A stretch of 64,000 nt of DNA from Balanoglossus misakiensis (GCA_040954595.2 CM082587.2:11897262-11961261); one strand, 5' to 3'; counted from the stretch's first letter, positions 1 to 46,200 are shown. Program-made: numbers and translations. The notes: generated from the sequence alone by a model not told the origin.

Positions 1-3000
1 TGAAATGAACTCATCTGCTGTGGGCCAGTTTATTGGTGGCAGTTGAGCTGAGGAGAGCACCTTCCTTCCCGGCACGCCACCAAGTAAAGTTCCACGCCGC
101 CCACCACAGATGCCAGCATTCATTCATGCGAGTGAGTGTAATTGCAAATTTGCCTATTCTAGATCTGTAATGGAAATGGAGAAAGTACCTTATATTTTCT
201 GTAAAATAGACATTTAATTGGCAAGCCGTCCTGCATCAATTATGAATTGTGTACATGCACTAAAGCGCCCTCACTGCTGGGTGTGTTGTATGGTCTTTAA
301 CCCTGTTTCAAATTAGAGTACTTTCTGCAATTTCAAGACAGATCTTACGTGCCATTGGAGAGCTCCATTGACTGGTCATTCATACTGTTTTCATTCATTC
401 ATTTCGGCATCAATATATTTTATCTATTCTAGCCAAAGAGCTTGGCACCTGTTGAAATGAACTCATCTGCTGTGGGCCAGTTTATTGGTGGCAGTTGAGC
501 TGAGAAGAGCACCTTCCTTCCCGGCACGCCACCAAGTAAAGTTCCACGCCGCCCACCACAGATGCCAGCATTCATTCATGCGAGTGAGTGTAATTGCAAA
601 TTTGCCTATTCTAGAATCTTACGTGCCATTGGAGAGCTCCATTGACTGGTCATTCATACTGTTTTCATTCATTCATTGCGGCATCAATATATTTTATCTA
701 TTCTAGCCAAAGAGCTTGGCACCTGTTGAAATGAACTCATCTGCTGTGGGCCAGTTTATTGGTGGCAGTTGAGCTGAGGAGAGCACCTTCCTTCCCGGGA
801 CGCCACCAAGTAAAGTTCCACGCCGCCCACCACAGATGCCAGCATTCATTCATGCGAGTGAGTGTAATTGCAAATTTGCCTATTCTAGATTCTTACGTGC
901 CATTGGAGAGCTCCATTGACTGGTCATTCATACTGTTTTCATTCATTCATTGCGGCATCAATATATTTTATCTATTCTAGCCAAAGAGCTTGGCACCTGT
1001 TGAAATGAACTCATCTGCTGTGGGCCAGTTTATTGGTGGCAGTTGAGCTGAGGAGAGCACCTTCCTTCCCGGCACGCCACCAAGTAAAGTTCCACGCCGC
1101 CCACCACAGATGCCAGCATTCATTCATGCGAGTGAGTGTAATTGCAAATTTGCCTATTCTAGATCTGTAATGGAAATGGAGAAAGTACCTTATATTTTCT
1201 GTAAAATAGACATTTAATTGGCAAGCCGTCCTGCATCAATTATTAATTGTGTACATGCACTAAAGCGCCCTCACTGCTGGGTGTGTTGTATGGTCTTTAA
1301 CCCTGTTTCAAATTAGAGTACTTTCTGCAATTTCAAGACAGATCTTACGTGCCATTGGAGAGCTCCATTGACTGGTCATTCATACTGTTTTCATTCATTC
1401 ATTGCGGCATCAATATATTTTATCTATTCTAGCCAAAGAGCTTGGCACCTGTTGAAATGAACTCATCTGCTGTGGGCCAGTTTATTGGTGGCAGTTGAGC
1501 TGAGGAGAGCACCTTCCTTCCCGGCACGCCACCAAGTAAAGTTCCACGCCGCCCACCACAGATGCCAGCATTCATTCATGCGAGTGAGTGTAATTGCAAA
1601 TTTGCCTATTCTAGAATTACGTGCCATTGGAGAGCTCCATTGACTGGTCATTCATACTGTTTTCATTCATTCATTGCGGCATCAATATATTTTATCTATT
1701 CTAGCCAAAGAGCTTGGCACCTGTTGAAATGAACTCATCTGCTGTGGGCCAGTTTATTGGTGGCAGTTGAGCTGAGGAGAGCACCTTCCTTCCCGGCACG
1801 CCACCAAGTAAAGTTCCACGCCGCCCACCACAGATGCCAGCATTCATTCATGCGAGTGAGTGTAATTGCAAATTTGCCTATTCTAGATCTGTAATGGAAA
1901 TGGAGAAAGTACCTTATATTTTCTGTAAAATAGACATTTAATTGGCAAGCCGTCCTGCATCAATTATGAATTGTGTACATGCACTAAAGCGCCCTCACTG
2001 CTGGGTGTGTTGTATGGTCTTTAACCCTGTTTCAAATTAGAGTACTTTCTGCAATTTCAAGACAGATCTTACGTGCCATTGGAGAGCTCCATTGACTGGT
2101 CATTCATACTGTTTTCATTCATTCATTGCGGCATCAATATATTTTATCTATTCTAGCCAAAGAGCTTGGCACCTGTTGAAATGAACTCATCTGCTGTGGG
2201 CCAGTTTATTGGTGGCAGTTGAGCTGAGGAGAGCACCTTCCTTCCCGGCACGCCACCAAGTAAAGTTCCACGCCGCCCACCACAGATGCCAGCATTCATT
2301 CATGCGAGTGAGTGTAATTGCAAATTTGCCTATTCTAGATCTGTAATGGAAATGGAGAAAGTACCTTATATTTTCTGTAAAATAGACATTTAATTGGCAA
2401 GCCGTCCTGCATCAATTATGAATTGTGTACATGCACTAAAGCGCCCTCACTGCTGGGTGTGTTGTATGGTCTTTAACCCTGTTTCAAATTAGAGTACTTT
2501 CTGCAATTTCAAGACAGATCTTACGTGCCATTGGAGAGCTCCATTGACTGGTCATTCATACTGTTTTCATTCATTCATTGCGGCATCAATATATTTTATC
2601 TATTCTAGCCAAAGAGCTTGGCACCTGTTGAAATGAACTCATCTGCTGTGGGCCAGTTTATTGGTGGCAGTTGAGCTGAGGAGAGCACCTTCCTTCCCGG
2701 CACGCCACCAAGTAAAGTTCCACGCCGCCCACCACAGATGCCAGCATTCATTCATGCGAGTGAGTGTAATTGCAAATTTGCCTATTCTAGATCTGTAATG
2801 GAAATGGAGAAAGTACCTTATATTTTCTGTAAAATAGACATTTAATTGGCAAGCCGTCCTGCATCAATTATGAATTGTGTACATGCACTAAAGCGCCCTC
2901 ACTGCTGGGTGTGTTGTATGGTCTTTAACCCTGTTTCAAATTAGAGTACTTTCTGCAATTTCAAGACAGATCTTACGTGCCATTGGAGAGCTCCATTGAC

Positions 3001-6000
3001 TGGTCATTCATACTGTTTTCATTCATTCATTGCGGCATCAATATATTTTATCTATTCTAGCCAAAGAGCTTGGCACCTGTTGAAATGAACTCATCTGCTG
3101 TGGGCCAGTTTATTGGTGGCAGTTGAGCTGAGAAGAGCACCTTCCTTCCCGGCACGCCACCAAGTAAAGTTCCACGCCGCCCACCACAGATGCCAGCATT
3201 CATTCATGCGAGTGAGTGTAATTGCAAATTTGCCTATTCTAGAATCTTACGTGCCATTGGAGAGCTCCATTGACTGGTCATTCATACTGTTTTCATTCAT
3301 TCATTGCGGCATCAATATATTTTATCTATTCTAGCCAAAGAGCTTGGCACCTGTTGAAATGAACTCATCTGCTGTGGGCCAGTTTATTGGTGGCAGTTGA
3401 GCTGAGGAGAGCACCTTCCTTCCCGGGACGCCACCAAGTAAAGTTCCACGCCGCCCACCACAGATGCCAGCATTCATTCATGCGAGTGAGTGTAATTGCA
3501 AATTTGCCTATTCTAGATTCTTACGTGCCATTGGAGAGCTCCATTGACTGGTCATTCATACTGTTTTCATTCATTCATTGCGGCATCAATATATTTTATC
3601 TATTCTAGCCAAAGAGCTTGGCACCTGTTGAAATGAACTCATCTGCTGTGGGCCAGTTTATTGGTGGCAGTTGAGCTGAGGAGAGCACCTTCCTTCCCGG
3701 CACGCCACCAAGTAAAGTTCCACGCCGCCCACCACAGATGCCAGCATTCATTCATGCGAGTGAGTGTAATTGCAAATTTGCCTATTCTAGATCTGTAATG
3801 GAAATGGAGAAAGTACCTTATATTTTCTGTAAAATAGACATTTAATTGGCAAGCCGTCCTGCATCAATTATGAATTGTGTACATGCACTAAAGCGCCCTC
3901 ACTGCTGGGTGTGTTGTATGGTCTTTAACCCTGTTTCAAATTAGAGTACTTTCTGCAATTTCAAGACAGATCTTACGTGCCATTGGAGAGCTCCATTGAC
4001 TGGTCATTCATACTGTTTTCATTCATTCATTGCGGCATCAATATATTTTATCTATTCTAGCCAAAGAGCTTGGCACCTGTTGAAATGAACTCATCTGCTG
4101 TGGGCCAGTTTATTGGTGGCAGTTGAGCTGAGGAGAGCACCTTCCTTCCCGGCACGCCACCAAGTAAAGTTCCACGCCGCCCACCACAGATGCCAGCATT
4201 CATTCATGCGAGTGAGTGTAATTGCAAATTTGCCTATTCTAGATCTGTAATGGAAATGGAGAAAGTACCTTATATTTTCTGTAAAATAGACATTTAATTG
4301 GCAAGCCGTCCTGCATCAATTATGAATTGTGTACATGCACTAAAGCGCCCTCACTGCTGGGTGTGTTGTATGGTCTTTAACCCTGTTTCAAATTAGAGTA
4401 CTTTCTGCAATTTCAAGACAGATCTTACGTGCCATTGGAGAGCTCCATTGACTGGTCATTCATACTGTTTTCATTCATTCATTGCGGCATCAATATATTT
4501 TATGTATTCTAGCCAAAGAGCTTGGCACCTGTTGAAATGAACTCATCTGCTGTGGGCCAGTTTATTGGTGGCAGTTGAGCTGAGGAGAGCACCTTCCTTC
4601 CCGGCACGCCACCAAGTAAAGTTCCACGCCGCCCACCACAGATGCCAGCATTCATTCATGCGAGTGAGTGTAATTGCAAATTTGCCTATTCTAGATCTGT
4701 AATGGAAATGGAGAAAGTACCTTATATTTTCTGTAAAATAGACATTTAATTGGCAAGCCGTCCTGCATCAATTATTAATTGTGTACATGCACTAAAGCGC
4801 CCTCACTGCTGGGTGTGTTGTATGGTCTTTAACCCTGTTTCAAATTAGAGTACTTTCTGCAATTTCAAGACAGATCTTACGTGCCATTGGAGAGCTCCAT
4901 TGACTGGTCATTCATACTGTTTTCATTCATTCATTGCGGCATCAATATATTTTATCTATTCTAGCCAAAGAGCTTGGCACCTGTTGAAATGAACTCATCT
5001 GCTGTGGGCCAGTTTATTGGTGGCAGTTGAGTTGAGGAGAGCACCTTCCTTCCCGGCACGCCACCAAGTAAAGTTCCACGCCGCCCACCACAGATGCCAG
5101 CATTCATTCATGCGAGTGAGTGTAATTGCAAATTTGCCTATTCTAGAATTCTTACGTGCCATTGGAGAGCTCCATTGACTGGTCATTCATACTGTTTTCA
5201 TTCATTCATTGCGGCATCAATATATTTTATGTATTCTAGCCAAAGAGCTTGGCACCTGTTGAAATGAACTCATCTGCTGTGGGCCAGTTTATTGGTGGCA
5301 GTTGAGCTGAGGAGAGCACCTTCCTTCCCGGCACGCCACCAAGTAAAGTTCCACGCCGCCCACCACAGATGCCAGCATTCATTCATGCGAGTGAGTGTAA
5401 TTGCAAATTTGCCTATTCTAGATCTGTAATGGAAATGGAGAAAGTACCTTATATTTTCTGTAAAATAGACATTTAATTGGCAAGCCGTCCTGCATCAATT
5501 ATGAATTGTGTACATGCACTAAAGCGCCCTCACTGCTGGGTGTGTTGTATGGTCTTTAACCCTGTTTCAAATTAGAGTACTTTCTGCAATTTCAAGACAG
5601 ATCTTACGTGCCATTGGAGAGCTCCATTGACTGGTCATTCATACTGTTTTCATTCATTCATTGTGGCATCAATATATTTTATCTATTCTAGCCAAAGAGC
5701 TTGGCACCTGTTGAAATGAACTCATCTGCTGTGGGCCAGTTTATTGGTGGCAGTTGAGCTGAGGAGAGCACCTTCCTTCCCGGCACGCCACCAAGTAAAG
5801 TTCCACGCCGCCCACCACAGATGCCAGCATTCATTCATGCGAGTGAGTGTAATTGCAAATTTGCCTATTCTAGATCTGTAATGGAAATGGAGAAAGTACC
5901 TTATATTTTCTGTAAAATAGACATTTAATTGGCAAGCCGTCCTGCATCAATTATTAATTGTGTACATGCACTAAAGCGCCCTCACTGCTGGGTGTGTTGT

Positions 6001-12000: not shown

Positions 12001-13953
12001 AGCCGTCCTGCATCAATTATGAATTGTGTACATGCACTAAAGCGCCCTCACTGCTGGGTGTGTTGTATGGTCTTTAACCCTGTTTCAAATTAGAGTACTT
12101 TCTGCAATTTCAAGACAGATCTTACGTGCCATTGGAGAGCTCCATTGACTGGTCATTCATACTGTTTTCATTCATTCATTGCGGCATCAATATATTTTAT
12201 GTATTCTAGCCAAAGAGCTTGGCACCTGTTGAAATGAACTCATCTGCTGTGGGCCAGTTTATTGGTGGCAGTTGAGCTGAGGAGAGCACCTTCCTTCCCG
12301 GCACGCCACCAAGTAAAGTTCCACGCCGCCCACCACAGATGCCAGCATTCATTCATGCGAGTGAGTGTAATTGCAAATTTGCCTATTCTAGATCTGTAAT
12401 GGAAATGGAGAAAGTACCTTATATTTTCTGTAAAATAGACATTTAATTGGCAAGCCGTCCTGCATCAATTATTAATTGTGTACATGCACTAAAGCGCCCT
12501 CACTGCTGGGTGTGTTGTATGGTCTTTAACCCTGTTTCAAATTAGAGTACTTTCTGCAATTTCAAGACAGATCTTACGTGCCATTGGAGAGCTCCATTGA
12601 CTGGTCATTCATACTGTTTTCATTCATTCATTGCGGCATCAATATATTTTATCTATTCTAGCCAAAGAGCTTGGCACCTGTTGAAATGAACTCATCTGCT
12701 GTGGGCCAGTTTATTGGTGGCAGTTGAGCTGAGGAGAGCACCTTCCTTCCCGGCACGCCACCAAGTAAAGTTCCACGCCGCCCACCACAGATGCCAGCAT
12801 TCATTCATGCGAGTGAGTGTAATTGCAAATTTGCCTATTCTAGAATTACGTGCCATTGGAGAGCTCCATTGACTGGTCATTCATACTGTTTTCATTCATT
12901 CATTGCGGCATCAATATATTTTATCTATTCTAGCCAAAGAGCTTGGCACCTGTTGAAATGAACTCATCTGCTGTGGGCCAGTTTATTGGTGGCAGTTGAG
13001 CTGAGGAGAGCACCTTCCTTCCCGGCACGCCACCAAGTAAAGTTCCACGCCGCCCACCACAGATGCCAGCATTCATTCATGCGAGTGAGTGTAATTGCAA
13101 ATTTGCCTATTCTAGATCTGTAATGGAAATGGAGAAAGTACCTTATATTTTCTGTAAAATAGACATTTAATTGGCAAGCCGTCCTGCATCAATTATGAAT
13201 TGTGTACATGCACTAAAGCGCCCTCACTGCTGGGTGTGTTGTATGGTCTTTAACCCTGTTTCAAATTAGAGTACTTTCTGCAATTTCAAGACAGATCTTA
13301 CGTGCCATTGGAGAGCTCCATTGACTGGTCATTCATACTGTTTTCATTCATTCATTGCGGCATCAATATATTTTATCTATTCTAGCCAAAGAGCTTGGCA
13401 CCTGTTGAAATGAACTCATCTGCTGTGGGCCAGTTTATTGGTGGCAGTTGAGCTGAGGAGAGCACCTTCCTTCCCGGCACGCCACCAAGTAAAGTTCCAC
13501 GCCGCCCACCACAGATGCCAGCATTCATTCATGCGAGTGAGTGTAATTGCAAATTTGCCTATTCTAGATCTGTAATGGAAATGGAGAAAGTACCTTATAT
13601 TTTCTGTAAAATAGACATTTAATTGGCAAGCCGTCCTGCATCAATTATGAATTGTGTACATGCACTAAAGCGCCCTCACTGCTGGGTGTGTTGTATGGTC
13701 TTTAACCCTGTTTCAAATTAGAGTACTTTCTGCAATTTCAAGACAGATCTTACGTGCCATTGGAGAGCTCCATTGACTGGTCATTCATACTGTTTTCATT
13801 CATTCATTGCGGCATCAATATATTTTATCTATTCTAGCCAAAGAGCTTGGCACCTGTTGAAATGAACTCATCTGCTGTGGGCCAGTTTATTGGTGGCAGT
13901 TGAGCTGAGGAGAGCACCTTCCTTCCCGGCACGCCACCAAGTAAAGTTCCACG
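1..13953. repeat. Tandem satellite array, left arm; mix of 452-bp (MITE-filled) and 272/274/275-bp (empty) monomers
   Basis: TGAAATGAACTCATCTG recurs at 1, 453, 727, 1001, 1453, 1725... (periods 452, 274, 274, 452, 272). Monomers are near-identical and head-to-tail. The array breaks after ...GTAAAGTTCCACG at 13953. Confidence 0.98.
161..345. mobile_element. MITE-like non-autonomous element (representative copy; present in every 452-bp monomer)
   Basis: 161-188 AGATCTGTAATGGAAATGGAGAAAGTAC matches the reverse complement of 318-345 (AGATCTGTCTTGAAATTGCAGAAAGTAC) at 23/28. AGATCT is repeated 179 bp apart. The segment is absent from short monomers. TSD length is ambiguous (AT, GATC or AGATCT) because the site is palindromic. 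Confidence 0.85.
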
Positions 13954-15746
13954 TGCATTCCTGGCCCTGGTTTTATTTATGTTTACAGACAATATTGCAT
14001 TTTTGTACAAGTATTTTAATCAACTATAAATTTTGAATGTGTCATTTACCTGAACCGGTCATGTTGACCAGAATGATACATTTCTGCCTTCACTCACCCT
14101 ATAAATATGTGATTGAGACATAGGTCATTTGCATAAGCTAACATACCAGAAAGTAAGCATATCTGTTGTTTTCCCTGTGTCACTGCCATCAAAGTAAAAA
14201 TTAGACGTTGTGTAGAGCAAACTCCAATTTTTTGTTCTCAATAAACATGGATGAATTACATAGAATGTGTTTGTTGTTTACAGTCTTTAAATGACACATT
14301 AGATTATGCACTTTACAAAACGTTTCTGAGAAACAAGTGACTAACTAGTTTCTTTCCACTGTGGCCAACGTGGTTCACTGTTTGTGTCAGAATCTCTCTG
14401 TTTTGCAAGGATTTTGAAATCATAGTGGTGACATGCATAGTGAAAATCAGCTACTTTCAAATGTCCGTCATGTTCATGCTGTAATTGAATTTTCAAAGCT
14501 GGGCTGGCGTGTTTTTTCTTATTTACATAAGTATCACACTTTATACATGTATCTTCATGGGGTTTTTTGAGTCCCGTATTTAGGTCCTCTCTCACAATTT
14601 TACGAAATATCGTATAACTGACAGTTGTTCTTCCCAGAAGAGATTGGTTGGTTATGAACTCTCGGTGTAACTGCGATATACTGTGGTCCGGCGCCAGGTA
14701 CGGTTTAAATCGAGGATTCCTGCAGTAGTGAGATTCTACAATTCTGTGCCTGCGTACGTGTTCAGTGATATCAGTCAGCAAATTTGGATTGAGTTTCCGA
14801 CGATGCCCTTTGTGTCGGCCCCTTGCATCTGGCATCAGACCAGTAAAGTTCCATGTGCATTCCTGGCCCTGGTTTTATTTATGTTTACAGACAATATTGC
14901 ATTTTTGTACAAGTATTTTAATCAACTATAAATTTTGAATGTGTCATTTACCTGAACCGGTCATGTTGACCAGAATGATACATTTCTGCCTTCACTCACC
15001 CTATAAATATGTGATTGAGACATAGGTCATTTGCATAAGCTAACATACCAGAAAGTAAGCATATCTGTTGTTTTCCCTGTGTCACTGCCATCAAAGTAAA
15101 AATTAGACGTTGTGTAGAGCAAACTCCAATTTTTTGTTCTCAATAAACATGGATGAATTACATAGAATGTGTTTGTTGTTTACAGTCTTTAAATGACACA
15201 TTAGATTATGCACTTTACAAAACGTTTCTGAGAAACAAGTGACTAACTAGTTTCTTTCCACTGTGGCCAACGTGGTTCACTGTTTGTGTCAGAATCTCTC
15301 TGTTTTGCAAGGATTTTGAAATCATAGTGGTGACATGCATAGTGAAAATCAGCTACTTTCAAATGTCCGTCATGTTCATGCTGTAATTGAATTTTCAAAG
15401 CTGGGCTGGCGTGTTTTTTCTTATTTACATAAGTATCACACTTTATACATGTATCTTCATGGGGTTTTCTGAGTCCCGTATTTAGGTCCTCTCTCACAAT
15501 TTTACGAAATATCGTATAACTGACAGTTGTTCTTCCCAGAAGAGATTGGTTGGTTATGAACTCTCGGTGTAACTGCGATATACTGTGGTCCGGCGCCAGG
15601 TACGGTTTAAATCGAGGATTCCTGCAGTAGTGAGATTCTACAATTCTGTGCCTGCGTACGTGTTCAGTGATATCAGTCAGCAAATTTGGATTGAGTTTCC
15701 GACGATGCCCTTTGTGTCGGCCCCTTGCATCTGGCATCAGACCAGT
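13940..15746. repeat. 902-bp tandem duplication (two copies)
   Basis: GTAAAGTTCCA(C/T)GTGCATTCCTGG occurs at 13941 and 14843. Both copies end ...GGCATCAGACCAGT. Two substitutions noticed between copies. AGT microhomology at the junction. Confidence 0.95.
14341..14835 (-). pseudogene. 5'-truncated duplicate of the transposase N-half ORF (its last 164 codons)
   Basis: Identical to the C-terminal 164 aa of 15243-16205 except R->K (GLRKP/GLKKP). Created by the 902-bp duplication. Confidence 0.85.
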
Positions 15747-16199
15747 TGAACAGTGCATCATTTTGCTTAGAACGGTTCTAGTCCGCCTCTCACTAATGCC
15801 AAATAATTTCAGGAATGCATTTTTGCAGACAGTAACCGTTTCACCGCCTTCATTCACCAGGTGATAACGAACCGATTTCTTGTGTGACTTCATCTGTATA
15901 TCCATCAGTTTGTAGAGCATCAAGTTCTGTTCATTATACACGCGACCATCAAAATATTTTCTCGTGGTGCCTAAAACATGCGTACTCCCAAGCTTCCGCA
16001 GACAATTCCCTTGAACGCAGGCGCATTCCAAGGAAAGACTGTCAATATCTGGAAAAGGGCGATTTTTCCTTGGTTTTTGTCTCGGACACGTCTTTTTAGA
16101 ATTCCTACGTGGCTTGTTGGCTCGAGCTGACAGTTCGGTTCTGCGTTGCTGCCACACAGGAATGGGTTCCCACGCATAAGCAACTCCCCGGCAGGCCAT
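15243..16199 (-). CDS. Sola1-like transposase N-terminal half (Cys/His-rich, putative DNA-binding), 318 aa from first ATG
   Basis: Motif series CxC..C, VCKNAFLKLFGIS, DARGRH, ESHYCR..YL, YTIFRKI, KPHEDTCIKCD, H..H...A matches the region that normally precedes the catalytic core in Sola1-type transposases. The ORF is intact. Minus-strand AATAAA candidate near 14875. Confidence 0.75.
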   Translation of the reverse strand: MACRGVAYAWEPIPVWQQRRTELSARANKPRRNSKKTCPRQKPRKNRPFPDIDSLSLECACVQGNCLRKLGSTHVLGTTRKYFDGRVYNEQNLMLYKLMDIQMKSHKKSVRYHLVNEGGETVTVCKNAFLKLFGISERRTRTVLSKMMHCSTGLMPDARGRHKGHRRKLNPNLLTDITEHVRRHRIVESHYCRNPRFKPYLAPDHSISQLHREFITNQSLLGRTTVSYTIFRKIVREDLNTGLRKPHEDTCIKCDTYVNKKKHASPALKIQLQHEHDGHLKVADFHYACHHYDFKILAKQRDSDTNSEPRWPQWKETS

Positions 16200-16370
16200 G
16201 GTCACAGCTGAAGTATTTGTTCAAGTACTGACTGACTAAACGCGGCATGGAACAAACGAACGAACGAACGAACGACTTCACGTTCGGAAAAAAAATCGTT
16301 GCGAGCTGTTGGGTGCCTCTATAGTTGTCGGCAACCGTTCTTTTTTATTGCTAAACAATGCTGTCAGAGC
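16200..16370. promoter_or_regulatory. Putative bidirectional promoter between the two transposase halves
   Basis: 171 bp between divergent ATGs (16199 on -, 16371 on +). Contains ACTG x2-3, (GAAC)n at ~16258-16273 and TTCGGAA at 16283. Function is inferred from geometry only. Confidence 0.45.
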
Positions 16371-17384
16371 ATGGAAGGTGTGGTGGAAAACGAACAGAGG
16401 TTTTGTACGACCAACGATTGGATGGTGCTACATATGGACTTCCACAAGTCATTGCCGGTTCCTAAACTCAGCTCTGAAGACTTTTACTTTAAATCGAAAT
16501 TGCAAATGAAGCTCCTTGGAATTTACAACGGGACAACGGAAAAGATGCATTGTTATGTATGGACAGAGCTCGATAGCAGAAAGTCTCCCGATGAAGTTAT
16601 TACCTGTCTAAATCACTTTTTTTATAACTCGGGTGTGACCAGCAGACATGCAGTTATTTACAGCGACAACTGCCGTGCCGAATTCAAGTGTGGGAAGTTA
16701 ATGTTTTACTATGACTATCTGTTACGAAAGGGCGTGTTTCGACGAATTGACTATAAAACTCTTGTGGCTGGACACACGTACTCCACCTGTGACCGAGTTT
16801 TTGCGTCCATTGAAAGGCATGCAAGTCGTTTCCAGAGTATAGAGACACCTCACGATTGGACATCTGTGATTCGAGGATCTTCTCTGAATGGGAACATTGG
16901 AGTTACGGAGATGACTCACAGAGACTTTTTCAATTATTCTGATTTCCTGAAAAATGAGTACGTTGTGCGTTATGCAGATACAAACAATGTAACTTTTTAC
17001 TACCAAGCCATGCACTATTTTAATTTTGGAGAAGGAGAAAGGCTTGATACCGACGGCAACCTCAGAACATTTAGTCATGCAGATAAAGTTTGGGTGAGAA
17101 CATCTCTAGATCCAAGCGAGACCCCGATTGTAGTCGACTTTAGAAAGAAGAAGCAGAACCGGCGTTTACAAGATTGTACGCTGAACAAACTTTATCAGGA
17201 ACGTCGACCACTGGCGAGCAAAGTTTGGCGGGATCTTCAGAGTTTAGCCAAAAATTACCTGTCTCCGGAGGCAATAGAATTTTATAGGAATCTACCGCTT
17301 CAGGAGAGTAGTGGCACCTCTGCAGACCCGTACGCCTTTCATGATGATGACGACGACGATGATGATGATATGGGCGGTGGTTGA
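16371..17384 (+). CDS. Sola1-like transposase catalytic (DDD) half, 337 aa from first in-frame ATG, acidic tail
   Basis: MDFHKSLPVPKL...FYFKSKL...YVWTE...DEVITCL...IYSDNC...LVAGHTYSTCDRVFASIE: three Asp in the typical Sola-like context (D-F, SDNC, GHTxxxCD). Ends in a poly-Asp run. Confidence 0.82.
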   Translation: MEGVVENEQRFCTTNDWMVLHMDFHKSLPVPKLSSEDFYFKSKLQMKLLGIYNGTTEKMHCYVWTELDSRKSPDEVITCLNHFFYNSGVTSRHAVIYSDNCRAEFKCGKLMFYYDYLLRKGVFRRIDYKTLVAGHTYSTCDRVFASIERHASRFQSIETPHDWTSVIRGSSLNGNIGVTEMTHRDFFNYSDFLKNEYVVRYADTNNVTFYYQAMHYFNFGEGERLDTDGNLRTFSHADKVWVRTSLDPSETPIVVDFRKKKQNRRLQDCTLNKLYQERRPLASKVWRDLQSLAKNYLSPEAIEFYRNLPLQESSGTSADPYAFHDDDDDDDDDMGGG

Positions 17385-17484
17385 ACAAACTGTCCTTTTC
17401 ATGACGACAGTGATTTTGGATATTTGATGTGCGTGCACAGTTTATATGTAATATTTTCACACGAACGAGTTTTGACTGAATTTG

Positions 17485-17570
17485 ATTAAAGAATGTACTC
17501 GATAATTAACAAATGTGCTGAATCGTGGTTATTATGTTGTTAATTTTTGTTTGTTTGTTTGTTTGTTTGT
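17485..17570 (+). terminator. Candidate poly(A) signal with downstream GT-rich tract
   Basis: ATTAAA at 17485-17490, ~100 bp after the stop, followed by (TTTG)n at ~17546-17570. Confidence 0.4.
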
Positions 17571-17702
17571 AAACAATTTCCGTTCATTCAACTGGCTACA
17601 AAGTTGGATTTTTGTACTGGGAAGCGATAAACTCGCACATCAAAACCGGGGAGACTCGATCATTTTTCCCTGCAGGTAGCCTGAAAAGCACCCGGGCAGA
17701 GA

Positions 17703-17776
17703 TTACGTCATATATGGTCCACTTTAATACGAAATTATGCAAATGTGACATTTCACGGAAACGGCGTATATAAAAG
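17703..17776 (+). promoter_or_regulatory. Pol II promoter of the SET gene: CRE-like site, octamer and TATA box
   Basis: TTACGTCA 17703-17710, ATGCAAAT 17737-17744, TATAAAAG 17769-17776, ~90 bp upstream of ATG 17868. Confidence 0.6.
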
Positions 17777-17867
17777 CGACCCTGGGCTATTGTTCGGAAT
17801 GCGTCATCGACGAGAGAGTGACTGATAATTCTTCTACCTCGAGTCAACCATTCTGTATATACTGAAC

Positions 17868-19194
17868 ATGGCTAGCTGGCGCAGGAAGAGACAAGGCAAT
17901 GTGCGGTCTGTAATCAACGAACGGCACCGCTCAGTTCAGTGTCCCTTTCTTCAAAAGTGGATCGGTGAGCAATTGGTATTTTCAGGTCGTTCAGAGGATG
18001 AAGTCCAGTCCAGTACTGTATTTGAGAGCTACAAATGTTGGGTTGAAAACTATTCGTCGGCGGACAATCAAGTAATGATTATGGTTACTAAAGCTCGATT
18101 TTTCAAGGTGAGAATGATCGCATTTTTCTTCCCCCCCCCCCTCCCTCCCCCAAGGGACTCGTTTTCTGTCTCTTTTAAACCTGTAACTTAACGAAAAGGA
18201 AGTTTTTCACATATCTCTTTGTTGACACTATAGCAATTTGGAGCGCGGATGCTTCAAGAGAATAGCGTTACCAAATCAAAGTCGGCCGGGGTTAATATTT
18301 ATAGAGGTGTTCGTCTGAAAGCTGGTTCGCGAAGAATCTCAACGGGGAAACCTGAGCACAGTGTACTTCAGACCAGGGCAAGGGCATTTCTTGATGACGC
18401 CAGCGTGACCGTTCCGATCGAGGTAAGAATGGTGTTTTGTTTGGACTAGGACAATAGAACGTTGCAATGAGTGTGTCAATGGGTGTCCAAGTGCAAACGT
18501 GGTCGGCTTCTGTCCACAAATGCCATTAATTTTAGGCAGGATTTATAAAATTGTCAATGAAGAATACAAAAATGAAAAACAATAGTTAATAGCAAACGGG
18601 TAGGATTGCAAGGGCTTGTAAAACGGTACACACTGTACCAGGAAGTTTGCAACACTAATGAAGAATGTATATGATATATTTAGGTGAGAACTGTTCGCGA
18701 TCGCCGGGACGCAGGACGGTGCGCGTTTTCGACGAGGGATCTTCAAGCCTGGAACGTCGTCTGCGAATACCGGGGCACGGTTATTAGCGTTGAAGAAGCT
18801 AGTCGGCGTGATGAACTTTACAGGGCAGAGGGGAAACGACCACGCATGTTTCATCTCTACATTGGAAAGAGACACGTTGTGTGAGTGTATCACTTAGTCG
18901 AATATATGGTCATATATTGCAAAGCATCTGTCGAAATAGAAAACGTAATATTGTCTATATTTTCCTCATTAACGCAGCATTGACGGATACGATGTCCCAG
19001 CCGGTGAAGAAAATTTAGCGGGCCTAATAAATCACAGTCAGCAGAACGCCAACTTGGTACCGGTTCGGATCGGAGAGCGCCTGGTTTTCTTTGCAACCAG
19101 GAATCTTTGTCAGGGAGTAGAGCTTTTGTATGATTACGGTGACGGGGGTGAAGAGGATTTCTTCAGTGGTTCTCAAACTTTTCCTGAAAATTAA
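17868..19194 (+). CDS. Winged-helix-like + SET-domain lysine methyltransferase (SETD8/PR-Set7-like), 4 exons, 280 aa
   Basis: Exons 17868-18107, 18234-18422, 18684-18880, 18978-19194 with GT-AG introns (GTGAGA, GTAAGA, GTGAGT donors) join in frame (843 nt). SET motifs: GRCAFSTRD, VCEYRG, IDG, AGLINHS, FFATRNL..GVELLYDYGD. The N-terminus (VFESYKCW...FFKQF...IYRGVRLK) resembles an RFX/D5-type winged helix. Confidence 0.85.
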
Positions 19195-20101
19195 GGCATT
19201 AACACATCAACGCTTCGGGATGTCGTAACGGCGGCAAGGCGGGGGGGGGGGGGGGGGGGCGTGAAAATGTTTGTATCAGGAACAAAATTCCCGTGCAAAT
19301 CACCTTGATCCGGGTGGGTGGACTATTCGCGACAAATGTTGAAATCATACAAAGCATTTTACTTAATTAACCCATTTTTTTCATTTATTTGTTTACAGTT
19401 TACAACGTCATAGAGAAGTTGAACTAGAGACTGGATCAGCGTGGGTGACACCATAGTACACCAATGTTTTCTTCAGTTTGATTCAATTGTAATTTAAAAC
19501 TGAGATTGCCTAACGCTTTCCCAGATTTTTTTAACCACTGAGAAACTGTGGGTTTTTTTCTGGGTTTTGGTGCGAGGTGATCTCAGTCAGTGGTGTTAAT
19601 TTAATTAATCATTTTCTTTTCCTATTTACGTCGACTGAAATGTATTTTGATAGGTGATAGTCATACCATAAAAAAATCTTACGGCGCGACTGCCAAAATG
19701 TACATTTATTTGTCCGTTCCAAGTTATTTTGTGTATGTGTGATGGGTGCCGGTGACTGTGCAGGGTTGATTTCCCTAGAGCGACTGTTATATTCGTTTTC
19801 CAACGATGATGAATTTACATGTTATTTGCTTGGCATTTTGACGCAGAGACACTTCTGAAAACACAAACCTATTAATTATGCCACGGGTGTAAATTGATCA
19901 CATTAAAAGAGGCTTTAGACGTTTGCCGCGAGCTCCTGGTGGGCAGAATCTTGTCAGCCCAAATTTGACTATAAGTACATAGCCAATGATGTGACGCTCT
20001 CCCACATCCTTCGCCGCGCCTTTTCGCTGATTTACAGCATCTTGCGTAAACACTGTCATTTGATCTTGCTTGGCAGAAGTCAACTTGCTCTATACTACAT
20101 T

Positions 20102-20467
20102 ATGGCGGCCAAGCTCAACTGCATATCAGATAATGCCAAGGAGCGTTTGAGAGGCATCCTCGCCAGAAGGAGTCGCGTTTCCGGTGACTGTGTGCTCTGG
20201 ACGGGTGCAGCTTGTCGAAACGGCTATGGCTCTATTACGTTCAGAGATGAGAACACTCTAACCGCCTATGTCCATCACATTGCACTCCTAATTAACGGAG
20301 TGCAATTGGTGGGCAGGCGGTTAGAGTGTTCTCATCTTTGCAACGAAAAGCTATGCATCCGCCCAGAGCACATTGTCCAGGAAACGCGACTCCTAAACAT
20401 TTCACGAAAGACGTGCTTTAAATCCCCAAAAGGGGAGTGTCACCACGATCCCAGGTGCCTAAGGTGA
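20102..20467 (+). CDS. His-Cys box (His-Me finger) homing-endonuclease-like protein, 121 aa from ATG
   Basis: CVLWTG...GYG...VHH...SHLCNEKLCIRPEHIVQE...NISRKTC...CHHDPRC matches the zinc-binding loop pattern of I-PpoI-type His-Cys box nucleases. Confidence 0.85.
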   Translation: MAAKLNCISDNAKERLRGILARRSRVSGDCVLWTGAACRNGYGSITFRDENTLTAYVHHIALLINGVQLVGRRLECSHLCNEKLCIRPEHIVQETRLLNISRKTCFKSPKGECHHDPRCLR

Positions 20468-20758
20468 GTAATCCTCTTCTCATTTGATATGTATTGTGTG
20501 ACCCTGCAGTTGAAACGCTTTCATCAATAATTTGCGGCGCGTGGGTAATCTCGGTGTTATTGACAATGCAGCCGGCCCAAACATTTTTAAATTAACACTG
20601 TTTCTGACTGTATTAACGAAATGTCCAATTTGCAAGTAGCCTATAGACAACCCTTTTGAATGAGTTTTGTCTCGTTGAGATTTTATACATAAGGAACAAT
20701 CTAGATTTATTTTAGAAGACACTGTTCTTTTAAAACAGCTAGCATAATACAGCTAAAT

Positions 20759-21126
20759 TTCGGAATTTCCGGACAATTTTCGGAATTCCTTTTAAATTTG
20801 AGAAATTTTTCATCAGATATAAGTGTTACTATTTATTGGACATGTTTTTATCATTGTTTACTTTTTAAGGTCATTCTCATCCCCCCCCCCCCCCCCCAAA
20901 AAAAAGCCGCTTTAGGCTTCATGTTCAGTAAAAAATCTGGAAAGTTCAGCTGAATTTTACACTGATCACACATTTTTGGGAAGGTCTGGCGCAAAATAAA
21001 GGATGACAAATGTAAATCTAATGTCACATTTGTAAACCTCTAAGTATTGTACACTCATTCTATTAAGTATATGCAAATAGTACGGATAATTTTTTCGGAA
21101 TGTGGAATTCCGAAATTAGTTCGGAA
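20759..21126. repeat. Inverted repeat pair and TTCGGAA motif cluster
   Basis: 20767-20789 TTCCGGACAATTTTCGGAATTCC matches the reverse complement of 21104-21126 (TTCCGAACTAATTTCGGAATTCC) at 20/23. TTCGGAA or its complement at 20759, 20779, 21094, 21108, 21120. Confidence 0.6.
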
Positions 21127-21450
21127 CGTGTTAGCAGTGAAGAGATCACCACTGAGGGTTGGAAGGCCTTGCCAGAAATTAACGCGTAAAGTACGCCCTC
21201 ACAGGCCATGTAAACAAGGTCAAATAAGGCCGTCTGGCAAACGAATGATTAATTCAACGCGCCATTTGAGCCGAGCTGAGTTGGTCTGAGTTGCGTATCA
21301 CACAGACTTAGGCTGAATGTCAGTGGAGTAACCAGTCCGTTTTAGATTTACCAATGATGTGAATTTAATTTCTTCACCCAGAAAAACAGAACACAACTTG
21401 TCTGCAACATGATGCTGGAGGTGACACATGACAGAGAAGTGGATCCGCGT

Positions 21451-21787
21451 TGTCAACACAGATGCCAGCATTCAAAAGGGGAGTGCCACCTGCTAAAATC
21501 AACTCATCTGCTGTTGGCCCATTTTACCTGTGGCAACTGTTCAGAGGAGACAACGTTTATTCCGTGCAAGCCAACACGCAATGTTGGGGTCTACCTGTCA
21601 ACACAGATGCAAGCATTCATGTGAGTGAGTATCAGGACTGACCTTGTTTTGCTGAATAATTCATAATGCCTATTTTAGAATTCTTAGAGGCATTTGGAGT
21701 TCATTGCCTGGTCAACCAAACTACACCCCTTAACAGCTGAAACAAAATGCGTATTGTGTTCATTCATTCATTGCTTCAATATATATA
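21451..21787 (+). repeat. Diverged copy of the satellite monomer inside the island
   Basis: Colinear matches: CACCTG..AAAT.AACTCATCTGCTGT.GGCC, GAGGAGA, CACAGATGC.AGCATTCAT, GAGTGAGT, TGCCTATT.TAGAATTCTTA, CATTG.CTGGTCA, TTCATTCATTCATTGC..TCAATATAT. Includes a 24-bp direct repeat at 21451 and 21596. Confidence 0.88.
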
Positions 21788-22253
21788 GGCAACATGAGTA
21801 TCAAGTAGCACTATTTGTTTACGATTGTATTCATGAAAACTTCCCACTAACAATTCCACAGTTAATATTGAACACATTTATCCAACAAGGTCAAAAGAAA
21901 AAGGGAATCTTCTGGTTCCAAAATACGCCACAAATGTGGGTCAACATACAGTGAAATATTATGGTGCTCAAATATGCAACATATCAAATCTGTCTCATCA
22001 AAGTCATGCTTTAAAAAAGAATTGAAAAGGTATTATTTATCCATTTGACTGCTGTATTTTCAGAAGGAAAACAAACTGAATTTGGTTTTTCATGTACAAA
22101 TATTTTCTGTAAAATAGACATTTAATTGGCAAGCCGTCCTGCATCAATTATTAATTGTGTACATGCACTAAAGCGCCCTCACTGCTGGGTGTGTTGTATG
22201 GTCTTTAACCCTGTTTCAAATTAGAGTACTTTCTGCAATTTCAAGACAGATCT

Positions 22254-37200: not shown

Positions 37201-40200
37201 AGCTTGGCACCTGTTGAAATGAACTCATCTGCTGTGGGCCAGTTTATTGGTGGCAGTTGAGTTGAGGAGAGCACCTTCCTTCCCGGCACGCCACCAAGTA
37301 AAGTTCCACGCCGCCCACCACAGATGCCAGCATTCATTCATGCGAGTGAGTGTAATTGCAAATTTGCCTATTCTAGAATTCTTACGTGCCATTGGAGAGC
37401 TCCATTGACTGGTCATTCATACTGTTTTCATTCATTCATTGCGGCATCAATATATTTTATGTATTCTAGCCAAAGAGCTTGGCACCTGTTGAAATGAACT
37501 CATCTGCTGTGGGCCAGTTTATTGGTGGCAGTTGAGCTGAGGAGAGCACCTTCCTTCCCGGCACGCCACCAAGTAAAGTTCCACGCCGCCCACCACAGAT
37601 GCCAGCATTCATTCATGCGAGTGAGTGTAATTGCAAATTTGCCTATTCTAGATCTGTAATGGAAATGGAGAAAGTACCTTATATTTTCTGTAAAATAGAC
37701 ATTTAATTGGCAAGCCGTCCTGCATCAATTATGAATTGTGTACATGCACTAAAGCGCCCTCACTGCTGGGTGTGTTGTATGGTCTTTAACCCTGTTTCAA
37801 ATTAGAGTACTTTCTGCAATTTCAAGACAGATCTTACGTGCCATTGGAGAGCTCCATTGACTGGTCATTCATACTGTTTTCATTCATTCATTGTGGCATC
37901 AATATATTTTATCTATTCTAGCCAAAGAGCTTGGCACCTGTTGAAATGAACTCATCTGCTGTGGGCCAGTTTATTGGTGGCAGTTGAGCTGAGGAGAGCA
38001 CCTTCCTTCCCGGCACGCCACCAAGTAAAGTTCCACGCCGCCCACCACAGATGCCAGCATTCATTCATGCGAGTGAGTGTAATTGCAAATTTGCCTATTC
38101 TAGAATTACGTGCCATTGGAGAGCTCCATTGACTGGTCATTCATACTGTTTTCATTCATTCATTGCGGCATCAATATATTTTATCTATTCTAGCCAAAGA
38201 GCTTGGCACCTGTTGAAATGAACTCATCTGCTGTGGGCCAGTTTATTGGTGGCAGTTGAGCTGAGGAGAGCACCTTCCTTCCCGGCACGCCACCAAGTAA
38301 AGTTCCACGCCGCCCACCACAGATGCCAGCATTCATTCATGCGAGTGAGTGTAATTGCAAATTTGCCTATTCTAGATCTGTAATGGAAATGGAGAAAGTA
38401 CCTTATATTTTCTGTAAAATAGACATTTAATTGGCAAGCCGTCCTGCATCAATTATTAATTGTGTACATGCACTAAAGCGCCCTCACTGCTGGGTGTGTT
38501 GTATGGTCTTTAACCCTGTTTCAAATTAGAGTACTTTCTGCAATTTCAAGACAGATCTTACGTGCCATTGGAGAGCTCCATTGACTGGTCATTCATACTG
38601 TTTTCATTCATTCATTGCGGCATCAATATATTTTATCTATTCTAGCCAAAGAGCTTGGCACCTGTTGAAATGAACTCATCTGCTGTGGGCCAGTTTATTG
38701 GTGGCAGTTGAGCTGAGAAGAGCACCTTCCTTCCCGGCACGCCACCAAGTAAAGTTCCACGCCGCCCACCACAGATGCCAGCATTCATTCATGCGAGTGA
38801 GTGTAATTGCAAATTTGCCTATTCTAGATCTGTAATGGAAATGGAGAAAGTACCTTATATTTTCTGTAAAATAGACATTTAATTGGCAAGCCGTCCTGCA
38901 TCAATTATGAATTGTGTACATGCACTAAAGCGCCCTCACTGCTGGGTGTGTTGTATGGTCTTTAACCCTGTTTCAAATTAGAGTACTTTCTGCAATTTCA
39001 AGACAGATCTTACGTGCCATTGGAGAGCTCCATTGACTGGTCATTCATACTGTTTTCATTCATTCATTGCGGCATCAATATATTTTATCTATTCTAGCCA
39101 AAGAGCTTGGCACCTGTTGAAATGAACTCATCTGCTGTGGGCCAGTTTATTGGTGGCAGTTGAGCTGAGGAGAGCACCTTCCTTCCCGGCACGCCACCAA
39201 GTAAAGTTCCACGCCGCCCACCACAGATGCCAGCATTCATTCATGCGAGTGAGTGTAATTGCAAATTTGCCTATTCTAGATCTGTAATGGAAATGGAGAA
39301 AGTACCTTATATTTTCTGTAAAATAGACATTTAATTGGCAAGCCGTCCTGCATCAATTATGAATTGTGTACATGCACTAAAGCGCCCTCACTGCTGGGTG
39401 TGTTGTATGGTCTTTAACCCTGTTTCAAATTAGAGTACTTTCTGCAATTTCAAGACAGATCTTACGTGCCATTGGAGAGCTCCATTGACTGGTCATTCAT
39501 ACTGTTTTCATTCATTCATTGCGGCATCAATATATTTTATCTATTCTAGCCAAAGAGCTTGGCACCTGTTGAAATGAACTCATCTGCTGTGGGCCAGTTT
39601 ATTGGTGGCAGTTGAGCTGAGGAGAGCACCTTCCTTCCCGGCACGCCACCAAGTAAAGTTCCACGCCGCCCACCACAGATGCCAGCATTCATTCATGCGA
39701 GTGAGTGTAATTGCAAATTTGCCTATTCTAGATCTGTAATGGAAATGGAGAAAGTACCTTATATTTTCTGTAAAATAGACATTTAATTGGCAAGCCGTCC
39801 TGCATCAATTATGAATTGTGTACATGCACTAAAGCGCCCTCACTGCTGGGTGTGTTGTATGGTCTTTAACCCTGTTTCAAATTAGAGTACTTTCTGCAAT
39901 TTCAAGACAGATCTTACGTGCCATTGGAGAGCTCCATTGACTGGTCATTCATACTGTTTTCATTCATTCATTGCGGCATCAATATATTTTATGTATTCTA
40001 GCCAAAGAGCTTGGCACCTGTTGAAATGAACTCATCTGCTGTGGGCCAGTTTATTGGTGGCAGTTGAGCTGAGGAGAGCACCTTCCTTCCCGGCACGCCA
40101 CCAAGTAAAGTTCCACGCCGCCCACCACAGATGCCAGCATTCATTCATGCGAGTGAGTGTAATTGCAAATTTGCCTATTCTAGATCTGTAATGGAAATGG

Positions 40201-43200: not shown

Positions 43201-46200
43201 GGTCATTCATACTGTTTTCATTCATTCATTGCGGCATCAATATATTTTATCTATTCTAGCCAAAGAGCTTGGCACCTGTTGAAATGAACTCATCTGCTGT
43301 GGGCCAGTTTATTGGTGGCAGTTGAGCTGAGAAGAGCACCTTCCTTCCCGGCACGCCACCAAGTAAAGTTCCACGCCGCCCACCACAGATGCCAGCATTC
43401 ATTCATGCGAGTGAGTGTAATTGCAAATTTGCCTATTCTAGAATCTTACGTGCCATTGGAGAGCTCCATTGACTGGTCATTCATACTGTTTTCATTCATT
43501 CATTGCGGCATCAATATATTTTATCTATTCTAGCCAAAGAGCTTGGCACCTGTTGAAATGAACTCATCTGCTGTGGGCCAGTTTATTGGTGGCAGTTGAG
43601 CTGAGGAGAGCACCTTCCTTCCCGGGACGCCACCAAGTAAAGTTCCACGCCGCCCACCACAGATGCCAGCATTCATTCATGCGAGTGAGTGTAATTGCAA
43701 ATTTGCCTATTCTAGATTCTTACGTGCCATTGGAGAGCTCCATTGACTGGTCATTCATACTGTTTTCATTCATTCATTGCGGCATCAATATATTTTATCT
43801 ATTCTAGCCAAAGAGCTTGGCACCTGTTGAAATGAACTCATCTGCTGTGGGCCAGTTTATTGGTGGCAGTTGAGCTGAGGAGAGCACCTTCCTTCCCGGC
43901 ACGCCACCAAGTAAAGTTCCACGCCGCCCACCACAGATGCCAGCATTCATTCATGCGAGTGAGTGTAATTGCAAATTTGCCTATTCTAGATCTGTAATGG
44001 AAATGGAGAAAGTACCTTATATTTTCTGTAAAATAGACATTTAATTGGCAAGCCGTCCTGCATCAATTATTAATTGTGTACATGCACTAAAGCGCCCTCA
44101 CTGCTGGGTGTGTTGTATGGTCTTTAACCCTGTTTCAAATTAGAGTACTTTCTGCAATTTCAAGACAGATCTTACGTGCCATTGGAGAGCTCCATTGACT
44201 GGTCATTCATACTGTTTTCATTCATTCATTGCGGCATCAATATATTTTATCTATTCTAGCCAAAGAGCTTGGCACCTGTTGAAATGAACTCATCTGCTGT
44301 GGGCCAGTTTATTGGTGGCAGTTGAGCTGAGGAGAGCACCTTCCTTCCCGGCACGCCACCAAGTAAAGTTCCACGCCGCCCACCACAGATGCCAGCATTC
44401 ATTCATGCGAGTGAGTGTAATTGCAAATTTGCCTATTCTAGAATTACGTGCCATTGGAGAGCTCCATTGACTGGTCATTCATACTGTTTTCATTCATTCA
44501 TTGCGGCATCAATATATTTTATCTATTCTAGCCAAAGAGCTTGGCACCTGTTGAAATGAACTCATCTGCTGTGGGCCAGTTTATTGGTGGCAGTTGAGCT
44601 GAGGAGAGCACCTTCCTTCCCGGCACGCCACCAAGTAAAGTTCCACGCCGCCCACCACAGATGCCAGCATTCATTCATGCGAGTGAGTGTAATTGCAAAT
44701 TTGCCTATTCTAGATCTGTAATGGAAATGGAGAAAGTACCTTATATTTTCTGTAAAATAGACATTTAATTGGCAAGCCGTCCTGCATCAATTATGAATTG
44801 TGTACATGCACTAAAGCGCCCTCACTGCTGGGTGTGTTGTATGGTCTTTAACCCTGTTTCAAATTAGAGTACTTTCTGCAATTTCAAGACAGATCTTACG
44901 TGCCATTGGAGAGCTCCATTGACTGGTCATTCATACTGTTTTCATTCATTCATTGCGGCATCAATATATTTTATCTATTCTAGCCAAAGAGCTTGGCACC
45001 TGTTGAAATGAACTCATCTGCTGTGGGCCAGTTTATTGGTGGCAGTTGAGCTGAGGAGAGCACCTTCCTTCCCGGCACGCCACCAAGTAAAGTTCCACGC
45101 CGCCCACCACAGATGCCAGCATTCATTCATGCGAGTGAGTGTAATTGCAAATTTGCCTATTCTAGATCTGTAATGGAAATGGAGAAAGTACCTTATATTT
45201 TCTGTAAAATAGACATTTAATTGGCAAGCCGTCCTGCATCAATTATGAATTGTGTACATGCACTAAAGCGCCCTCACTGCTGGGTGTGTTGTATGGTCTT
45301 TAACCCTGTTTCAAATTAGAGTACTTTCTGCAATTTCAAGACAGATCTTACGTGCCATTGGAGAGCTCCATTGACTGGTCATTCATACTGTTTTCATTCA
45401 TTCATTTCGGCATCAATATATTTTATCTATTCTAGCCAAAGAGCTTGGCACCTGTTGAAATGAACTCATCTGCTGTGGGCCAGTTTATTGGTGGCAGTTG
45501 AGCTGAGGAGAGCACCTTCCTTCCCGGCACGCCACCAAGTAAAGTTCCACGCCGCCCACCACAGATGCCAGCATTCATTCATGCGAGTGAGTGTAATTGC
45601 AAATTTGCCTATTCTAGATCTGTAATGGAAATGGAGAAAGTACCTTATATTTTCTGTAAAATAGACATTTAATTGGCAAGCCGTCCTGCATCAATTATGA
45701 ATTGTGTACATGCACTAAAGCGCCCTCACTGCTGGGTGTGTTGTATGGTCTTTAACCCTGTTTCAAATTAGAGTACTTTCTGCAATTTCAAGACAGATCT
45801 TACGTGCCATTGGAGAGCTCCATTGACTGGTCATTCATACTGTTTTCATTCATTCATTGCGGCATCAATATATTTTATCTATTCTAGCCAAAGAGCTTGG
45901 CACCTGTTGAAATGAACTCATCTGCTGTGGGCCAGTTTATTGGTGGCAGTTGAGCTGAGGAGAGCACCTTCCTTCCCGGCACGCCACCAAGTAAAGTTCC
46001 ACGCCGCCCACCACAGATGCCAGCATTCATTCATGCGAGTGAGTGTAATTGCAAATTTGCCTATTCTAGATTCTTACGTGCCATTGGAGAGCTCCATTGA
46101 CTGGTCATTCATACTGTTTTCATTCATTCATTGCGGCATCAATATATTTTATCTATTCTAGCCAAAGAGCTTGGCACCTGTTGAAATGAACTCATCTGCT

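Follow-up and report, generated by a model that had tools for sequence, protein, structure and literature searches.

Short junction alleles in a Balanoglossus misakiensis satellite array are likely scars of only a few breaks of one shape

We analyzed a 64,000-nt stretch of DNA from Balanoglossus misakiensis (GCA_040954595.2 CM082587.2:11897262-11961261; hereafter the window), which is a satellite array broken once by an 8.5-kb insert. At one junction of the repeated unit, the array carries either a 177-bp element with terminal inverted repeats (TIRs) or one of four short alleles, here called a, b, c and d. Our results indicate that the four short alleles are real, and that they are likely the scars of only two to four breaks of one shape that were later copied. 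As to what made these breaks, we judge hairpin excision of the 177-bp element, with or without later re-cutting of allele d, to be about an even call.

Junction alleles and their amplification

The array and its junctions comprise the following features, in window coordinates:
347..614 (+): example of the constant satellite backbone, 268 nt
1165..1341 (+): 177-bp TIR element resembling a miniature inverted-repeat transposable element (MITE), one of 94 complete copies, with AT at 1163-1164 and 1342-1343
611..622 (+): first of 14 copies of allele a, which reads ctagaatcttac; 274-bp unit
885..896 (+): first of 13 copies of allele b, which reads ctagattcttac; 274-bp unit
1611..1620 (+): first of 16 copies of allele c, which reads ctagaattac; 272-bp unit
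5143..5155 (+): allele d, which reads ctagaattcttac; 3 copies, also at 37373 and 50776; 275-bp unit

Tabulation of the 141 left anchors in the window gave 95 filled junctions, 14 a, 13 b, 16 c and 3 d. The core of b is the reverse complement of the core of a, and the core of d is the palindrome AGAATTCT. The precise site, ctagatcttac, has no occurrence in the whole window, and the unit lengths (94 × 452, 27 × 274, 16 × 272, 3 × 275 and 1 × 8503 nt) include no 273-nt unit. An earlier sequence-only reading of this DNA had given the same allele counts and unit lengths, which were exact on recount, and had likewise seen neither a clean site nor a 273-bp monomer.

That reading had also placed all indels of the array at this one spot, and this holds in every monomer scored (n = 140, excluding the 8503-nt unit, the first 346 nt and the last partial unit). 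All 140 monomers have a 268-nt backbone, and all 94 insert blocks measure 184 nt; besides the junction, the monomers vary by eight substitution types only. Slippage-prone tracts of the monomer, for example three CATT copies, are free of indels. That three independent indels would by chance all fall within the same predefined 10 of 452 nt has p ~1e-5. An Rfam search of the backbone returned no match up to E 5.

Next, we considered how many break events the 46 short junctions represent. The alleles are tied to single-nucleotide polymorphisms (SNPs) and to their neighbors. Private SNPs mark b (C179G, 11/13) and d (C154T, 3/3), and the SNPs private to alleles lie 90-115 nt from the junction. Allele b comes right after a in 11 of 14 cases, the junction following a unit with SNP C78G is c or d in 10/11, and the unit following a run of a/b bears the insert SNP in 13/16. 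These neighbor statistics were reached in 0/5000 shuffles, which shows higher-order structure only, as the copies are not independent. Two higher-order slots account for the allele pattern: one is used by c and d, the other by a and b, whether alone or as a-b pairs. None of the eight SNPs unites the short forms. Since the alleles sit in fixed slots with private SNPs, the short junctions go back to two to four old events, which unequal crossover has multiplied, rather than to 46 separate scars or to read errors. We also noted that the window as a whole (1-64000) has an irregular higher-order repeat structure, in which the filled and short units carry the eight SNPs as markers, and that crossovers are visible in the array (e.g. 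F59* at 5606 and F58 at 45350).

Flank-hairpin excision and its rivals

The 177-bp element is MITE-like in being short, non-coding and uniform in length (177 nt in 94/94 complete copies), with an imperfect TIR of ~24-28 nt. Both filled junctions read AGATCT, so that the element boundary can be set in four registers: no target-site duplication, AT, GATC or AGATCT, all of which give an identical precise site (one insertion site). The sequence-only reading had drawn the boundary at an AT duplication; that register is admissible, but it is only one of the four. In the AT register the element ends in CT..AG.

We enumerated 16 cut and boundary settings from the filled site, 12 with a flank hairpin and four without. 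Only one of the 16 yields all four alleles, namely an AT duplication with a hairpin on the flank and a nick 1 nt out. With this geometry, a, b and d arise without trimming and c with two bases trimmed. Joints between hairpin-opened ends rank by microhomology as d > a = b = c > precise (d 2 nt; a, b and c 1 nt; precise none), whereas non-hairpin models rank the precise site first and cannot reach c or d. The precise site is thus predicted to be the rarest repair product, since it is the only one without microhomology, and its absence is to be expected: with about four events, the probability of missing it is 0.24-0.66 at per-event rates of 0.3-0.1. The missing precise site, which had been held up as noteworthy, is therefore no surprise. 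The earlier proposal of later amplified scars stands as far as break repair at one site followed by amplification is concerned; neither c nor d, on the other hand, follows from simple excision or from cutting the precise site, and both require flank-hairpin excision or a cut through d.

The geometry resembles that of hAT elements, for which the literature describes a flank hairpin with a one-base offset, loss or complementation of the base beside the element, and microhomology joining (PMC8151067, PMC5499845; Ds footprints, PMC1978519). All four alleles agree with the footprints predicted for such a hAT-type reaction, as they equally would with a cut in d, from which it is indistinguishable. 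The proposed flank hairpin, its offset and the footprint style are as reported for Ac/Ds and Hermes. By contrast, the duplication here is at most 2 bp in the fitting register rather than 8 (the longest direct repeat at the filled junctions is 6 nt), the window contains no hAT transposase, and the footprints have become fixed and multiplied within a satellite.

Under hairpin excision, the original target would have been the precise site, filled by the 177-bp element; this site need not survive. In each of two to four excisions, the flank would then be nicked one base away from the element and its end closed into a hairpin. If both hairpins were opened two bases past the tip, the ends would anneal best to d, next to a, b or c, and not to the precise site. 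End joining would yield a, b, c and d, with a and b, which are mirror images, possibly coming from one mismatched joint. The scars were then likely multiplied by unequal crossover within the array, and a nuclease resident in the insert may afterwards have cut some d sites again. In favor of excision, the filled site looks canonical and one known chemistry fits uniquely. A search for refilled scars with six junction patterns found none in the window, an outcome that a single amplified insertion would also give.

The hairpin-opened ends are, however, identical letter by letter to the ends of a cut through d, and d turns into a or b by deletion of 1 nt and into c by deletion of 3 nt. The choice is therefore between d as an inverted footprint and d as the ancestor. 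The insert holds the following features:
13953..22249 (no strand assigned): the 8.5-kb insert, which starts inside a backbone and whose final part (22100-22249) is the last 150 nt of a 177-bp element
15243..16220 (-): N-terminal half of a DUF7869 transposase; in BLASTP against 184 proteins, single-chain homologs match it by their N halves (best E 2e-20)
16236..17384 (+): catalytic half of a DUF7869 DDD transposase; Pfam PF25273, E 1.4e-14
17829..19194 (+): SET-domain gene, apparently of several exons (read by eye); PF00856, E 1.6e-07, last piece only
20102..20467 (+): intact open reading frame (ORF) of 121 aa for a His-Cys box, I-PpoI-like nuclease; PF05551, E 6.7e-13
21484..21784 (+): diverged satellite backbone copy that spans the junction and reads d-like at 21673-21687

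Several points weigh against excision. The strongest counterpoint to its simple form comes from the diverged internal copy, whose junction has the d reading to be expected of an ancestor that had never been filled. To fit this copy, excision requires that the copy's lineage, too, once held the element and lost it; excision survives the observation because d is its own top product too. Moreover, the sole transposase in view lacks the insertion domain that is common to flank-hairpin enzymes (PMC5499845, PMC9587614); a hAT-like or other enzyme elsewhere in the genome may be an alternative source. At the right end of the insert, the element sequence sets in with base 28, immediately beyond the left TIR, suggesting that the resident transposase is the element's parent. 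The shared slots suit in-place conversion of empty sites, and a 2-bp duplication with CTGT ends matches no hairpin-type family that we could confirm.

The foremost rival takes d as the ancestral, never-filled site and as the target of the insert's His-Cys nuclease, such that a precise 273-bp unit never existed. We regard this as possible, if rather unlikely. A cut would leave a 4-nt 3' AATT overhang, to be repaired by microhomology to a, b or c, or to be filled: an element ending in ATCTGT...ACAGAT joined to the recessed ends would replace AATT and give the exact filled junction, which would then spread by gene conversion. The internal copy serves here as an outgroup. It is ~70% identical to the backbone and colinear with it across the junction (two blastn matches: 151 nt at 71%, E 1e-14; 59 nt at 76%, E 6e-07), and 19/20 identical to d at the junction itself; AGAATTCT occurs four times in the window, at the three d alleles and in this copy. 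Descent of the short forms from a never-filled ancestor, which the sequence-only reading had set as a refuting case, thus stays alive through the d-like copy, and the eight SNPs cannot polarize the history.

Further support for this rival comes from the deletion relationship of a, b and c to d, from the microhomology available after a 4-nt cut (1, 1 and 2 nt for a, b and c; none for precise), from the slots that c shares with d and a with b, from the fold of the resident transposase, which is the wrong one for hairpin excision, and from d being presently the rarest allele (3/141). The nuclease ORF is intact and, by the residue numbering of PMC9587614, retains the I-PpoI catalytic and zinc equivalents S97, H98, C100, C105, H110, E114, N119 and C125. 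The same paper describes I-PpoI as cutting a semi-palindrome to 4-nt 3' overhangs. The arrangement also recalls homing of the I-PpoI group I intron, a system with end-joining resistant alleles, in its His-Cys box nuclease, its multicopy tandem target, its majority of filled alleles and its semi-palindrome with an A/T four-base center. It differs in that a TIR unit without coding sequence makes up the filled allele here, the array has a single copy of the nuclease gene, and cleavage is putative.

Nevertheless, recognition of d by the nuclease is putative only. The rival requires either an insertion that deletes target bases, for which we found no precedent as overhang replacement, or a precise intermediate followed by insertion at exactly that spot, and it needs the coincidence of an element that starts with AT. 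Overhang duplications, which it predicts as 276-279 bp units, number 0/141. The nuclease gene's own neighborhood contains a d-like site, and KolobokP nucleases seemingly do not set the integration site (PMC9587614).

KolobokP elements (Kojima and Bao 2022, PMC9587614) have the nearest layout among known systems and supply a second rival. They are animal elements that combine a DDD/E transposase with an I-PpoI-like His-Me nuclease and form tandem multimers; these shed terminal repeats together with 1-5 flanking bases from one side. The array could by analogy be a composite of the form (repeat-internal)n, in which the 177-bp unit is the terminal repeat and the backbone the internal part, and no empty target is expected. 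Loss of the repeat with one flanking base would give a or b, both of which are one-sided 1-nt losses from a doubly AT-flanked site. Common to both systems are the loss of a TIR-bounded unit at some positions, the small junction changes and the His-Me finger nuclease. However, c and d need extra events, namely later template switching or mutation, and the junction alleles here include gained or inverted bases. The transposase belongs to DUF7869 and lacks the C/DxxH insertion of Kolobok enzymes, a SET gene is added, the unit has 177 nt instead of the ~450 or ~660-nt direct repeats at both ends, RR..YY termini are absent, and the insert is without a left repeat. We therefore consider a composite improbable.

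That sequencing or assembly went wrong at the base of the element hairpin is hardly credible: the 177-bp element does fold back on itself as DNA (z = -2.9), but there are four discrete alleles only, no other indel occurs among the 140 monomers, and the links of the alleles to private SNPs and fixed neighbors exclude read error.

Other origins of the short alleles were tried and rejected. Neither c nor d is produced by mariner-type retention of element ends, by plain deletions or by a RAG-type zero offset, and a cut of the precise site ranks precise religation first and produces no c or d. A Helitron head-to-tail junction was dismissed by eye, as the spacer begins with A and the diverged internal copy has no CTAG, and so was quasi-palindrome correction, for which the stem is too short and not present in that copy.

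Genes and side features of the insert

In the catalytic half of the transposase, D23, D99 and D141 (counted from the ATG at 16371) are invariant or nearly so in 12 sequences, and D141 is predicted from the alignment to be catalytic. The closest named relative is a Saccoglossus protein (47%). A structural model of this half (predicted local distance difference test score 85) has an integrase/mariner-like fold, with foamy virus integrase as the best match (Z 10.6), followed by Mos1 (9.3) and Hermes (7.5); the Hermes alignment spans a large gap (model 17-175 versus chain 174-603). Foldseek agrees. With such a core and only 41 residues between D99 and D141, the insertion domain of the known flank-hairpin enzymes (C/DxxH in hAT-type transposases) is missing.

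Single-chain DUF7869 homologs of ~600-700 aa are common. The two halves in the insert are divergently oriented, each with an acceptor-like site upstream. Because the N and C parts are colinear on one strand in L001, the insert copy is probably rearranged, and it may be dead; we favor an internal inversion over a natural split of the transposase. A conserved clade of split transposases was considered and rejected, given that homologs of ~310 aa may be single exons and that L001 is colinear. A search for transposase loci accepted 0/17 viral candidates and 2/88 metagenome candidates, both of ~2 kb and without ends.

Judging by its motifs, DUF7869 may be Sola1. Sola elements encode DDD transposases (PMC10741241), and the DDD triad and the ~600-700-aa single-chain homologs are points of likeness. 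The target duplication of Sola1 is AWWT (PMC3845634); the only 4-bp register here is GATC, unlike that duplication (also PMC10741241, PMC3627910), while allele d does carry an AWWT core.

The nuclease has I-PpoI as its best PDB match (E 0.002), and a search for nuclease homologs passed 0/4 candidates. Inside its ORF lies a 26-nt inverted repeat (96%; 20242-20267 and 20315-20340) across which the frame stays open. By comparison with I-PpoI, one arm would lie at the DNA-contacting strand; the repeat may have rewritten the specificity of the nuclease. A donor-like motif follows the nuclease stop codon. The SET gene sits between the transposase and the nuclease.

Additional features were noted in and around the insert. 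No left TIR was found in it. Its left edge carries a 902-nt tandem duplication with two differences (13940-15743), which opens with 12 nt matching the backbone, either true microhomology or part of the duplicated unit. In the N half of the transposase, 16094-16111 matches allele d at 16/18 positions; only 1/278 backbone 18-mers and 0/60 shuffles reach 16, and the site overlaps the codons of a conserved R-N-S motif, so coincidence is possible. Near the right end, a short open frame (21864-22030) has no Pfam match; we take it to resemble the 3' end of a CR1/L2-type long interspersed nuclear element.

The satellite (5116-5146) and the internal copy (21625-21678) both keep a GTGAGT donor-like and a pyrimidine-AG acceptor-like motif, spaced 31 and 54 nt apart, respectively, with the scar site immediately after the AG. 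Coding ancestry of the backbone was rejected, as third positions held 19 of the 48 differences (p 0.22) and no protein matched. A 24-nt direct repeat (96%; 21451-21474 and 21596-21619) lies in and just before the internal copy and contains CAGATG, the complement of which also occurs in the other best-kept block.

Novelty and significance

Motifs of the element and backbone had no matches in prokaryote and viral collections, and a scan for the junction pattern returned 23 viral-contig loci, none of them alike beyond the motif. Literature searches on DUF7869, on satellites with MITE excision footprints and on Sola together with SET and homing endonuclease returned no paper describing this combination, within a coverage that is thin for subscription papers and Repbase. 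The scars themselves are of a known kind; what sets this array apart is its combination of genes and the surviving series of alleles. One stretch keeps the full series (filled, likely parent and three scars) together with an outgroup copy and the two candidate enzymes.

A doubtful proposal is a new type of animal element that joins a DUF7869 transposase, an I-PpoI-like nuclease and a SET gene. Its nuclease would cut AGAATTCT in the satellite, its ends would replace the AATT overhang rather than produce a target duplication, and the filled allele would home to two thirds of the array, with a, b and c as cut-resistant scars and d left at 3/141. A second novel possibility is that a transposase without an insertion domain carried out flank-hairpin excision.

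Should an ordinary hAT-like enzyme elsewhere be responsible, the array would present a tidy but known footprint pattern. If excision is true, the alleles would give the first footprint-based reading of this element's excision chemistry, possibly by a DUF7869 enzyme. The targets of KolobokP nucleases were left open in PMC9587614; if the nuclease reading is true, the window would hold the natural target and the resistance alleles of a transposon-borne His-Cys nuclease in an animal.

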